A stretch of DNA of 64,000 bases, taken from the IMG/VR virus record IMGVR_UViG_3300046007_012472, positions 12,437-76,436 of that record. One strand, 5' to 3'. Each line of letters starts with the position of its first letter. The stretch's first letter is position 1. The notes under the pieces are model-generated. The model had not been told where the DNA came from. It did not search any database and saw only the letters and a program-made list of their open reading frames with translations. The position numbers and the translations under genes were made by a program. Of the stretch, positions 1,170 to 62,534 are shown piece by piece. The DNA is from a virus.

Positions 1170-1203
1170 GCGAGACTCCTCATTCCGGGGAGTCTCGCCT
1201 TTT
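1170..1203 (+). terminator. intrinsic terminator
   Basis: 12-bp stem GCGAGACTCCTC/GGGGAGTCTCGC, loop ATTCC, then CTTTT; between convergent units. Confidence 0.75.
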
Positions 1204-2218
1204 AGAGATTTATTGAATTCCCTGAGCCAAAATATCCCAATCCAGCAAGAGAAGAATAAGGATTTGTTACCGCTGAAGGACCAACAAATCGTGTGGTTCT
1301 AGGAATTTCTATTGATGATGGTAATTTATCACATGATGTGTTCTCAAACCATCTCATAGAAGAATTATCAAATAATGTCATTCTAACTTGACATTGACCA
1401 AAGGTTTGATTTTCATAACACGCAACTTTATTGTTATTTTGGTATATGCCACAAGCACCAATAACAGCCGGTCCTGTTGCTGTTGTTATTGAATCAGTTC
1501 CTTTTCTTTCTTGCAATAATTCTACTCCAACCCTAAGTCCAAATGTTGCTTCTTGAGTGACTGGTTCTTCTACCGAAAGGTATTCACTTCCATCTTTGTT
1601 TGTGAAAACATCATTTACCGTATAAGTTTTATTGTTTAATTGTGTTCCAGTTATTTTTATTTTATCTTTTGGATAAATTCCAAATTTAGTGAAAGATGAA
1701 GTTTTGTCTTTAGCCAATGCATTGATAATGATGTATTCTGGTTCGTCCTTTTGTGGAGAAAGAGACAACCCAAACTGTGGCGGATTTGTGAAATAATTTG
1801 ATTCATATCTGAGAATTCTTTTGTTCAGATTGTTGATTGTTACTGGGGAAGCAATAATAACATTTCCGACAAAATCCTCAAATTCATATGTTCCCCCCAA
1901 ATTCGCATTTGATTCGGAACCATCCAAAGAATAAATTGCAGTGTTAATCGTGAATGTAAATCCAGCGGTTAAACCTGAAAAAAGTCCGTTTAACAATGAA
2001 ATATCGGTATTATTCTGTGAATTCGAATAATCGATCAATACTTTTGTATAATCGGAAGAAAAAGAAAATGCAGGTATTGTGGAAAGATACTTATTCGTGT
2101 TCAATTCTTGAGTCAAATTTATAGTAAAATCCAATCCCAAAAAAATACCCACTCTTGTCGCCACGATGTTTGGCGATGATGTTGAATTTTGAAGATAATA
2201 TTTTTGAGTATAAAACAT
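1202..2218 (-). CDS. hypothetical protein, probably virion structural
   Basis: 338-aa ORF, beta-rich, C-terminal Cys cluster (GACG...ACYENQTFGQC...TSC); start abuts stop of upstream gene. Confidence 0.7.
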   Translation of the reverse strand: MFYTQKYYLQNSTSSPNIVATRVGIFLGLDFTINLTQELNTNKYLSTIPAFSFSSDYTKVLIDYSNSQNNTDISLLNGLFSGLTAGFTFTINTAIYSLDGSESNANLGGTYEFEDFVGNVIIASPVTINNLNKRILRYESNYFTNPPQFGLSLSPQKDEPEYIIINALAKDKTSSFTKFGIYPKDKIKITGTQLNNKTYTVNDVFTNKDGSEYLSVEEPVTQEATFGLRVGVELLQERKGTDSITTATGPAVIGACGIYQNNNKVACYENQTFGQCQVRMTLFDNSSMRWFENTSCDKLPSSIEIPRTTRFVGPSAVTNPYSSLAGLGYFGSGNSINL

Positions 2219-59526: not shown

Positions 59527-59964
59527 TTAAATAATGGAATTTGTTAATTGTAGTTGTATTGTTGCTATTGAATTTTCTGTGAGTGAATTTGTCAGGGTAA
59601 AATTCATAGTTGCATCCTCACCTCCAAATACTAAAGCATCTGTTTTCAAAGTAATAGTTATTCTTTTTCCTTGCTCTACAGTTAAATCTGTTCTTCTTCC
59701 TGTTCTTTGTGTTGTTGCATCAGATGTATCATTTGGTTCTTTTAAATCGATGTACAGAAGAGCATTCCATCCAGTTCCCGTTGGTATTGGATTATAATTA
59801 ATTCTAACAGGTATTTTATCAGTTGTTATACCTGTAAAAGTTGAAGATGATGTTGCATCTGCATTTGCATCGCCTAATTGATCTACAGATACAGGGCTTG
59901 GAAAATTAACAGTAGGAGTTAGGTCATTTCCATAAAAAGCAGAAAAATTACTAGAACCAATCAT
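59527..59964 (-). CDS. hypothetical T-rich beta protein, fibre-associated
   Basis: 145 aa; ATGA overlap with upstream fibre gene. Confidence 0.65.
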
Positions 59965-62534
59965 CTGTATATTCCAGAATAATTACCATACCAATTTGTT
60001 CCAGCGTTCACGGTCATGAAAGATATTATTTCTCTTGCGGTTCCAGTTCCCCCAAGAACTGGTGATGTTCCACCGCTCCAAAGTGTTCCGCTAGGCCAAG
60101 CCAGACTCGTTCCTTTTGGACCACATGCACCCGCCTGAATTATTAATGTGAATGTTATCGCAGATGATGAAGGTGAAGGAACATCTGAAAAATTAAAAGT
60201 TACTTTTGTTGGAGCTCCGGTGAAACTAACTTCCTGAATATGCCCATATGTAAATCCAAGAGTAATAGTTGTTAGCCCAGTGGCATTTCCTATATTTCTA
60301 TATGCCTCTGAATAGTTGCCAAAATATGGTGTACTTGAAACAAATTTAAATTTATCAGATCCACACAAACCCGTAACTGAATCTCCGTATGTGTATTTCG
60401 GTGCTAAATCTTTTGCAGTTTGTGTTAATTCGCTGTTTCCTGTCGGACCTGTTGGACCAGTAGGTCCAGTTGATCCAGTTGGACCCGTTGATCCCGTGGG
60501 ACCGGTGGGTCCCGTAGGACCTGTTCCTCCACTTCCACCCGAAACAGAGGGCGTGGTATAATTTATAGATCCCATTTCTACCCATTGACTTGAATCACCA
60601 TCAAACAAGTAAAAATAGTATCTGCCTGTATCACTGTTAAACCACTGATCACCAGCTGTCATTCCGGTGGGTGGTATATTATCATAAAATATGGTATTTG
60701 ACGGTCCTGTATTACCAGTCGGACCAGTTGGTCCGGTAGGTCCGGTTGCACCTGTGTTTCCAGTGGCACCCGTAGGTCCAGTTGGTCCAGTTGGACCTGT
60801 GTTTCCTGTTGTGCCTGTAGGTCCGGTAGGTCCAGTTGGACCCGTGTTTCCAGTTGGTCCGGTAGGTCCTGTAGCACCCGTAGGTCCAGTTGCACCATTT
60901 CCCACTACAGTTGTGCTAAATGTAAATCCAAATGAGGAGAATTGTATCGTTATTCCCGATCCTGCAATCAGATTAATACTACCAGTGTAACCATTTATTG
61001 CGGAAACACCAGCAGAACCAGAACCAGAGCCAGCCGGTCCTTCTGGTCCTATATTACCTGAACGAGTAAACCATAAATGAACTCTTTCATTGTTATCAAA
61101 AGTAAATCCGCCTGTATATGAAGGAATTAATGTAAATTCGTATTTCACATATTCTTCATCATATGTACCAGATCCGGTAATACCAAAAATATGATATTTT
61201 GTATTATTTCTGTTGGTTATTTGTAAATAACCTTTATGGCTATTTGAAGATTCATTCCAAGAATCTAAAAATGATTTAACATTTGAAAAATTTGCATCTG
61301 TTGTGGACAGAGTTAAAAATGTTGCGCCTATGGCTTGATTATTAGTCAGATATAATAAACCAGAACTCATTGGTAAAATAATAGTACCGGTATTAAAATT
61401 GTATGGGATTCCTAGTGGAACGCCAGTTGCACCAGTAGGTCCAGTCGGTCCCGTTGTTCCTGTTGGACCAGTTGGACCGGTAGGTCCAGTTGGACCAGTA
61501 GATCCAGTAGGTCCCGTCGATCCGGTGTTTCCTGTTGGACCTGTTGGTCCCGTGTTTCCTGTTGGTCCCGTGTTTCCTGTCGGACCTGTATTTCCAGTAG
61601 GTCCAGTAGAGCCAGTAGGTCCGGTCGCACCGGTGGGTCCAGTCGGACCTGTATCACCGGTAGCTCCAGTAGGTCCTGTTGGTCCGGTGTTTCCAGTTGA
61701 TCCTGTGTGACCTGTGGACCCGGTGGGTCCAGTCGGACCTGTATCACCGGTAGGTCCAGTTGGTCCTGTTCCTCCGCTTCCACCCGAAACAGAAGGTGTT
61801 GTATAATTTATAGAACCCATTTCTACCCATTGACTGGAGTCTCCATCAAATAGGTAAAAATAATATCTTCCGCTATCACTATGAAACCATTGATCTCCAG
61901 CGGTCATTCCGGTTGGAGGTGTATTCTGATAAAATATGGTATTTGGATTTCCAGTACTACCAGTATTACCTTTATCACCAGTTGGTCCGGTTGGTCCATC
62001 TATTCCGGTTGGTCCTTGTTCTCCTATCGAGGCAATTTCTACCCATTGTGTAGAATCACCATCAAACAAGTAAACATAATATCTACCTGTTGAACTGTTA
62101 AACCATTGATCTCCAGAAGTAGCCCCAGACGGAGGTGTCGGAGAAAAATTTATTTTTACAGAGCCGGTGGGTCCAGTTGGTCCTGTATTTCCCGGATTTC
62201 CCGGATTTCCTGTCGGACCAGTGGGTCCAGTTGGTCCTGTTCTACCAGTCGCTCCTGTAGGTCCTGTAGGTCCTGTAGGTCCTGTTCTGCCGGTTGGTCC
62301 AGAGGGTCCAGTTGTTCCTCCGGTTCCTCCTGGACCCCCGCTAGACCCTTCTAGTGCAAATATAGCCCAACCACCTCTTTCCAGCGTTTCTGGAATATAA
62401 CCAGAGGTTTCTCTTGTTGCTATGTAACTTACACCATTTCTCGTTACAACATCACCCGGAGAATAAATTACATCATTCCCGTTTAAATCTTTATTTTTGT
62501 ATATACCAAGAAATCTTAGTGAACGAATAGCCAT
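59961..62534 (-). CDS. long collagen-like (G-P-T) fibre protein
   Basis: Several GPT tracts; three copies of PPxGxTxGDQWF.S.xGRYY.YLFDGDSxQWVE; AATAAATA at 62541-62548. Confidence 0.88.

Follow-up and report, generated by a model that had tools for sequence, protein, structure and literature searches.

We analyzed a 64-kb window of viral DNA, i.e. bases 12437-76436 of the 76,436-base IMG/VR contig IMGVR_UViG_3300046007_012472, which is ~35% complete by estimate. The gene content of the window is that of an uncultured, aquatic T4-like myovirus. At 55667..56884 on the minus strand (positions are those of the window) lies a gene for a 405-amino-acid glycosyltransferase with an N-terminal GT-A domain and a C-terminal TPR-like helical domain, named GT2-TPR here. 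Genes for collagen-like fibre proteins flank it, and in several fibre and baseplate-periphery proteins of the same window Thr is found two residues after Gly (the motif G-x-T) far more often than expected. The original prediction had read this motif as a candidate O-glycosylation sequon of a glycan coat put on the virion by GT2-TPR and an island of sugar genes.

Motif-bearing proteins at the locus

Expected counts were obtained from shuffles within each protein. The beta-rich candidate virion protein at 20993..21841 (minus strand, 282 amino acids) has the highest G-x-T density, with 12 sites versus 4.35 expected (p<5e-4). The PKD-domain baseplate-periphery protein (18374..20803, plus strand, 809 amino acids, Pfam PKD_4) has 16 versus 4.8 (p<5e-4), and the giant hub-region protein, which takes the gp5/gp27 position between gp53 and gp25 (9820..15054, plus strand, 1744 amino acids), has 14 versus 6.8 (p=0.008). 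Next to the enzyme gene, the RCC1-like beta-propeller protein (53238..55001, minus strand, 587 amino acids, Pfam RCC1-like domain) has 13 versus 5.8 (p=0.001), four of these sites being at the equivalent blade position P.G.T..K.SAG. The small protein encoded directly downstream of GT2-TPR (55122..55643, minus strand, 173 amino acids), a candidate small fibre or substrate, has 6 versus 1.6 (p=5e-4), and its C-terminal end is a short GPTGST collagen-like tract.

Three collagen-like fibre proteins with Pfam Collagen matches are encoded on the minus strand, at 48147..50054 (635 amino acids, a (GPT)n protein with a duplicated globular domain), 50445..53126 (893 amino acids) and 59961..62534 (857 amino acids). 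Their genes flank GT2-TPR within 6 kb, and their role as substrates is putative. The first has long GPT, GST and GTT tracts, and outside collagen it has 19 G-x-T sites versus 6.0 expected; the third has 13 versus 6.95 outside collagen. The two negative controls are the core baseplate wedge gp6 (15467..17227, plus strand, Pfam Gp6-like) with none versus 2.6, and the DNA polymerase gp43 (43481..45997, minus strand, Pfam DNA_pol_B) with one versus 2.7.

The hand counts of G-x-T per Gly behind the original prediction were all recovered, i.e. 12/36 for 20993-21841, 16/57 for the PKD protein, 0/35 for gp6 and 1/45 for gp43, and for the RCC1 protein we count 13 G-x-T among 68 Gly. The accompanying claim that the motif pervades the outer virion proteins is too broad. 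Several of them are strongly enriched as described above, but the proteins at 1202-2218 (3 versus 2.6) and 2218-3669 (7 versus 6.7) and the non-collagen part of 50445-53126 (6 versus 5.9) are at expectation.

In the 282-amino-acid protein, 10 of the 12 sites are kept in 14 homologues, with Thr-to-Ser swaps at two sites. Sites 125, 150 and 175 have the common context G.TA and a 25-residue period. The AlphaFold2 (AF2) model of this protein is poor (pLDDT 58), and Foldseek gave weak solenoid-like matches to it, none of them significant.

The G-x-T excess on this contig

As a guard against selection bias we pooled all 19 candidate virion proteins and scanned every residue pair. With collagen masked, the pool has 112 G-x-T sites versus 60.3 expected (z 7.2), and G-x-T is rank 1 of 1,600 gapped pairs (400 residue pairs, gaps 0 to 3), the runner-up having z 3.9. 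The 41 non-virion proteins have 27 sites versus 28.9, i.e. no excess, and G-x-S is flat in the pooled virion proteins. Under stricter collagen masking the count is 79 versus 45.9 (z 5.5), with BLAST-detectable repeats masked it is 137 versus 94 with rank 1 kept, and the excess is also retained in 20-residue block shuffles. The excess thus persists after correction for composition by shuffles, pair ranking, both kinds of masking and block shuffles, as the original prediction requires.

A cause at the DNA level was ruled out, as Gly codon use at the sites is the same as elsewhere (p 0.92) and the excess is limited to certain proteins. Regional G/T richness was ruled out as well: G-T at gaps 0 and 2 is flat, and block shuffles keep the signal. 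The same goes for a general strand preference as the sole cause, since Val, Ile and Ser show no excess at the Thr position.

Two minor observations were made on the same proteins. D-x-T is also mildly over-represented in the pooled virion proteins under strict collagen masking (50 versus 33.5, z 3.1). At the G-x-T sites of nine enriched proteins ACT accounts for 40% of the Thr codons, versus 25% at other Thr of these proteins and 41% in collagen tracts (chi-square p 0.03), which hints weakly at an origin of some sites from collagen-like DNA.

A hydrophobic form of the motif in related phages

The residue at +1 is hydrophobic in 71% of the G-x-T sites and the residue at +3 in 79%, versus a background of 40%. 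Written as G-φ-T-φ, with φ a hydrophobic residue, the sharpened motif occurs 6 times versus 0.76 expected in the PKD protein and 5 times versus 1.0 in the hub-region giant, all within residues 524-868. Outside collagen it occurs 10 times versus 0.9 in the fibre protein at 48147-50054 and 7 times versus 1.0 in that at 59961-62534. The PKD protein, the RCC1 protein, the hub-region giant and the fibre globular domains all carry G-φ-T-φ and have no detectable mutual similarity. A motif that crosses dissimilar families in one genome points to an outside factor and not to one fold.

The closest cultured phages are cyanophages, with a gp6 identity of only ~29%, and blastn of the baseplate region against named phages gave no match. 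We compared the contig with four relatives, labelled G001, G002, G006 and G008, and with five outgroup phages, i.e. T4, the cyanophages S-RSM4 and S-CRM01, the Vibrio phage Kuja and the jumbo phage Tunturi_5. G-φ-T-φ was counted over whole predicted proteomes with collagen and BLAST-detectable repeats masked. This contig has 40 sites versus 14 expected (z 6.9), and the relatives have 68 versus 29 (G001, z 7.0), 52 versus 29 (G002, z 4.6), 48 versus 22 (G006, z 5.5) and 53 versus 35 (G008, z 3.2). The outgroup counts are 49 versus 43 for S-RSM4 (z 0.9), 33 versus 25 for T4 (z 1.6), 41 versus 33 for S-CRM01 (z 1.4), 20 versus 24 for Kuja (z -0.8) and 92 versus 74 for Tunturi_5 (z 2.3). As ratios to expectation, the four relatives lie at 1.5 to 2.3 and the five outgroup phages at 0.8 to 1.3.

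G-φ-S-φ is weak, G-φ-V-φ and the mirror motifs show no excess, and G-polar-T is flat. In an unsupervised ranking of 400 one-gap pairs over all open reading frames (ORFs), G-x-T leads the list on this contig as well as in G001 and G008, and it comes 40th in T4 and S-RSM4. Hence the excess is real, directional, Thr-specific and confined to this phage group. We found no GT2-TPR homologue in T4, S-RSM4, S-CRM01 or Kuja, and none of these four is enriched, so the motif is not equally frequent in phages lacking the enzyme. T4 gp36 and gp37 do have a modest G-x-T excess, but their sites have a polar x and represent a different motif.

Enrichment in the window and the near-complete relatives falls on fibre-like and distal baseplate proteins and on the giants encoded downstream of GT2-TPR; replication enzymes, portal, sheath and gp6 show none. 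The non-virion proteins of this contig and its relatives have 5 G-φ-T-φ sites versus 15.1 expected, and the outgroup orthologues have 5 versus 8.3, which is only suggestive of a depletion of the motif in non-virion proteins.

The GT2-TPR enzyme

GT2-TPR matches PF00535 (Glycos_transf_2) over residues 9-99 with 45 bits (cut-off 23.3), and TPR families over residues 176-225. Its nucleotide-binding motif DxGSTD (36-41) and DxD motif DADD (90-93) are invariant across 29 homologues, so that by Pfam score and both motifs it is a GT2 enzyme. The AF2 model has a pLDDT of 90, with helical repeats from 175 to 404.

GmaR is the Listeria flagellin O-GlcNAc transferase, and the TPR domains of GmaR and FlmG go with protein substrates. 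Among solved structures phmmer places GmaR first (3e-8) and SunS next (6e-8). The top Foldseek matches of the model are SunS and ThuS (7msn, 7msk, 7msp) with E 9e-15 to 2e-13, TM scores of 0.52-0.58 and 288-395 aligned columns, and the next class, teichoic-acid transferases, follows at E about 1e-6. The model thus has the full-length SunS-like fold, i.e. GT-A followed by a C-terminal helical substrate-binding domain, and GT2-TPR has the GT-A-then-TPR architecture of SgtA/GmaR-type enzymes (for SgtA see PMC7157674, where the TPR domain also goes with a protein substrate). By its likeness to these peptide and protein glycosyltransferases in sequence and predicted structure, GT2-TPR does look protein-directed.

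Membership in the SunS family itself was rejected. Against TIGR04195 the enzyme scores 37.6 bits, far below the NCBIfam cut-off of 350, with only residues 4-95 aligned, and GT2-TPR is therefore not a SunS-family member. Among the listed ORFs no glycocin precursor Cys peptide lies beside the gene, whose neighbours are the 173-amino-acid protein and the fibre genes.

At least 125 related IMG/VR contigs encode GT2-TPR, and more than 6,000 protein clusters match it. The enzyme was found in 9 of 14 long related contigs, the five without it being fragments, and it is present in the sole relative that is at least 90% complete. The contig of G006, the strongest candidate for a relative lacking the enzyme, breaks off inside the sugar island, where by synteny with G001 the enzyme gene would fall just past its end, so this genome is uninformative on the absence of the enzyme.

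Gene neighbourhood and the sugar island

The gene order around GT2-TPR is stable in 80 related loci. Sugar enzymes lie upstream, GT2-TPR stands at the head of the fibre gene block, and downstream come a protein of 136-173 amino acids and then collagen-like and giant proteins. The ORFs downstream of GT2-TPR in these loci have 482 G-φ-T-φ sites versus 159 expected, and the upstream ORFs have 91 versus 81; the loci are related, so the counts are non-independent. Of the 80 loci, 42 encode a homologue of the small protein, in most cases immediately downstream of GT2-TPR. The family of the small protein has two adjacent G-φ-T motifs that are 89% conserved, and in an alignment with a mean column identity of 38% only a few residues are nearly invariant, G57 and T59 among them. 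In a protein atlas 55122-55643 falls close to small collagen or BppU-like phage proteins, which gives no more than a lead. In G001 the gene directly downstream of GT2-TPR encodes a 2,513-amino-acid protein (L097:9653-17194) with ten IPT/TIG domains.

In this window a glycan-synthesis island of ~14 kb is recognized by Pfam matches at 28110..42467 on the minus strand. It encodes an FkbM methyltransferase, a C-methyltransferase, RibB, two GT10 enzymes, a GT25 enzyme, a DXD sugar-binding transferase, a GT47 enzyme and a Nucleotid_trans protein, and NCBIfam gives weak nucleotidyltransferase matches. In the relatives, genes homologous to those of the island lie directly upstream of GT2-TPR. From this contiguity we infer that the island may elongate the same glycan that GT2-TPR would start.

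The island also contains an intact gene for RibB (DHBP synthase) at 35338-35958. Its neighbours at 32388-35375 are nucleotidyltransferase-like and HAD-like genes and a possible kinase. RibB with no other riboflavin gene in the window suggests an unusual sugar-donor pathway.

Comparison with known glycosylation systems

The Bacteroidetes O-glycosylation sequon is D-(S/T)-(A/I/L/V/M/T). We know of no short acceptor motif for any phage, and to our knowledge the capsid and tail-tube tails of mycobacteriophages are so far the sole demonstrated case of virion proteins glycosylated by enzymes of the phage itself. In that case phage-encoded glycosyltransferases modify virion proteins of siphoviruses, the glycans reportedly being on C-terminal tails of the capsid and tail-tube subunits (Freeman et al. 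2023 as cited in PMC12619734). In the phage studied here, a myovirus, the candidates are fibre and baseplate-periphery proteins, and the motif proposed is short and internal.

The nearest parallel in architecture and gene context that we considered is SgtA of Clostridioides difficile, a GT-A plus TPR enzyme whose gene lies immediately upstream of bclA3 and which adds O-GlcNAc to Thr of GPT repeats (PMC7157674). Both systems combine an N-terminal GT-A domain with C-terminal TPRs and place the gene beside genes for (GPT)n collagen-like surface fibres. There are also differences. SgtA accepts Ser too, whereas the phage motif is Thr-specific; the phage system sits in a T4-like genome; the likeness is to the description of SgtA and not to its sequence; and the phage also has G-φ-T-φ dispersed in globular beta-domains, with nothing like it described for SgtA.

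The best fold matches (SunS and ThuS, TIGR04195, E ~1e-14 over ~390 columns) and the best sequence match (Listeria GmaR) all act on peptides or proteins. The identity to them is only 13 to 18%, and SunS makes S-linked sugars on Cys. A more distant analogy comes from TMEM260, which O-mannosylates IPT/TIG domains at the sequon Px6Px3Px2GGx3T with Thr on the first beta-strands (bioRxiv 10.64898/2026.09.21.753134). Relatives of our phage have G-x-T-rich TIG domains, and a strand Thr can evidently be an acceptor. However, TMEM260 belongs to an unrelated eukaryotic enzyme class, works in the ER lumen and has another sequon spacing, so it serves as an analogy only.

The collagen tracts of the window themselves resemble those of BclA. 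Out of 244 triplets, Thr is at Y in 141 (58%) and Pro at X in 90, i.e. they are BclA-type tracts with Thr at Y. In S-CRM01, which lacks the enzyme, the collagen Y position is 63% Gln. Separately, at the locus L087 19995-29216 the Tunturiibacter phage Tunturi_5 (PP885688.1) encodes a GT2-TPR homologue (37% identity) ~4 kb from its tail-fibre protein gp29. The 110 collagen triplets of this gp29 carry Thr at Y in 58% of cases, and their X is Pro or Ala. By analogy, this pairing repeats the SgtA-BclA3 type in an unrelated jumbo phage.

What the motif may mean

In the mechanism we propose, GT2-TPR made in the infected cell would bind fibre and peripheral baseplate proteins through its TPR domain and would then put the first sugar on the Thr two residues after Gly. 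Candidate acceptors are found in the (GPT)n collagen tracts, in the G-φ-T loops conserved in the small protein next door, and at the dispersed G-φ-T-φ sites, where Thr would face away from two buried hydrophobic flanks. The other transferases and the methyltransferases of the island may lengthen the sugar. We hold it to be possible, and the likeliest of the readings if short of even odds, that GT2-TPR glycosylates fibre proteins at the Thr of G-x-T and so contributes to the dispersed motif. We are more doubtful that G-φ-T-φ is a true O-glycosylation sequon, with GT2-TPR decorating strand-exposed Thr of fibre and outer-baseplate proteins and the island building the glycan, in a large aquatic T4-like group.

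Accordingly, only part of the sequon-directed glycan coat of the original prediction is retained. Glycosylation of the fibres is plausible and the enzyme looks directed at proteins, and Thr is the putative site of modification as judged from the sequences; the sequon is unproven, and the word coat overstates the case. The capsid genes are outside this window, but the major capsid proteins of the relatives show no G-φ-T-φ excess, so a coat over the whole virion is not indicated. Nor is it supported that the (GPT)n collagen tracts represent the peak of one and the same motif. The dispersed sites have a hydrophobic x and a hydrophobic +3 residue, i.e. a beta-strand context, and so differ from GPT, GST and GNT of collagen, where x is Pro or polar.

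As a separate observation on these capsid proteins, those of G001, G002 and G006 have a short C-terminal extension, LHGNTGF, which G008, T4, S-RSM4 and S-CRM01 do not have. At the DTGNTFA position of the capsid protein, GNT is common to the four relatives, and the outgroup phages have other residues there.

Several further points weigh against the proposed role of the enzyme at the dispersed sites, as the capsid result does. With Pro or a polar residue as the collagen x and G-polar-T flat outside collagen, a single recognition rule is not obvious. G001 and G002 keep the enzyme at ~60% identity with little Thr at the collagen Y position. In favour of the sequon, however, their scarcity of GPT collagen makes the small protein or the dispersed sites the likelier candidates for any conserved substrate in these two. 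Tunturi_5 and two megaphages have distant homologues of the enzyme and no dispersed excess (20 kb on either side of the gene were covered in the megaphages). None of the 14 long related contigs demonstrably lacks the enzyme, and all five related genomes that carry or probably carry it and show the motif enriched in their fibre and baseplate proteins form one lineage, so the co-occurrence counts as a single evolutionary event. A GT-A enzyme may not reach a strand Thr in a folded protein. With repeats masked, the relatives have plain G-x-T at 1.2 to 1.35 times expectation, with T4 and S-RSM4 at 1.06 to 1.15 times, although G-φ-T-φ in the relatives is still high. The hydrophobic flanks put the dispersed Thr in beta-strands, where a structural motif fits equally well, and some sites fall on conserved repeat positions, i.e. 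the GGT of the ten TIG domains in G001, the four RCC1 blades and the 25-residue coil ladder of 20993-21841.

These last points lead to a structural explanation, in which G-φ-T-φ is the signature of a Gly turn, an amphipathic strand and an outward Thr in beta-modules such as TIG domains, RCC1 blades, solenoid coils and Ig-like domains, and the enzyme glycosylates only collagen G-x-T or flexible loops, as SgtA does on BclA3. It would account for the hydrophobic +1 and +3 residues, for GGT as a family motif of the TIG domains, for the equivalent blade and coil sites, for sites that keep their position across the 282-amino-acid family and for the signal being weaker after repeat masking; T4 gp36 and gp37 have their modest excess with no known glycosylation, and the SgtA precedent is limited to collagen repeats. 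On the other hand, the beta-rich fibre and Ig-like proteins of the five other phages have no such excess and the T4 sites belong to a different motif, the excess spans mutually dissimilar families of one genome and is rank 1 after repeat masking on the contig and in G001, good strand formers such as Val and Ile are not in excess at the Thr position, and G001 and G002 have kept the enzyme with little GPT collagen to act on. We regard this explanation as a serious one that is, on balance, somewhat unlikely to be the full answer; independently of what the enzyme does, structure accounts for part of the motif signal.

It is also conceivable, and in our view unlikely, that GT2-TPR and the island act off the virion, on glycans of the host envelope, a small peptide or some further target that is not part of the virion, and that the motif is an unrelated structural trait. 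Sugar islands of cyanophages are commonly interpreted as modifying the surface of the host cell (PMC12801897), and phage glycosyltransferases also modify DNA (PMC12619734). PHROGs annotates the enzyme family as a beta-1,4-glycosyltransferase in its host-takeover category, the wall-teichoic-acid transferases TarS, TarP and RmlT form the second tier of fold matches, and in this window the island is ~13 kb away from GT2-TPR. But SunS and ThuS, aligned over their full length, score seven orders of magnitude better than the polymer transferases, the TPR domains of SgtA, GmaR and FlmG go with protein substrates, and in 80 loci the gene consistently heads the fibre block. That another phage-specific factor reads the motif, e.g. 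a fibre chaperone, an assembly partner or a different Thr-modifying enzyme, seems quite improbable to us. A phage-group-specific, cross-family, directional and Thr-specific excess suggests a separate factor without telling which one, but we found no candidate gene, and GT2-TPR is the sole conserved enzyme beside the motif-rich genes. The proteins were at first chosen by eye and the ORF calls in the relatives are crude, which might raise the suspicion of a statistical or annotation artefact. This is largely refuted and hardly credible, as the unsupervised test of 400 pairs over all ORFs puts G-x-T first on the contig, in G001 and in G008, the excess withstands block shuffles and both maskings, and five outgroup phages treated in the same way show nothing comparable.

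The proposed role of GT2-TPR in fibre glycosylation is thus partly supported, a good and testable lead but not a demonstrated system. If the sequon is true as well, these phages would have a genetically encoded, motif-directed sugar layer on their host-recognition apparatus. Sequence alone would then reveal glycosylation sites on receptor-binding proteins of thousands of environmental phages, with a bearing on host recognition, resistance to proteases and grazing, how sticky the particles are in water and how phage surfaces may be engineered. Should the motif prove structural, it is still the case that an abundant phage lineage has conserved an SgtA-like enzyme at the start of its fibre cluster, and that this lineage has a Thr-specific four-residue signature that goes beyond ordinary beta-strand preferences.

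Other genes in the window

The replication and nucleotide genes of the window are gp32, gp41, UvsX, gp43, gp44/62, gp45, regA, ThyX and ribonucleotide reductase, and its baseplate genes are gp53, gp25, gp6 and one for a wedge protein. The PKD-domain protein, the RCC1-like protein, the three collagen-like proteins and GT2-TPR are encoded besides these; capsid, sheath and portal genes were not found within the 64 kb. Amid the baseplate genes, at 7694-8122, lies a gene for a TnsA-like or PD-(D/E)XK endonuclease that may be a homing-type mobile element. A DUF1599 gene at 46017-46379, with a nucleotide-modification-associated domain, adjoins a dUTPase/dCTP-deaminase-like gene, and DNA base modification is possible in this phage.

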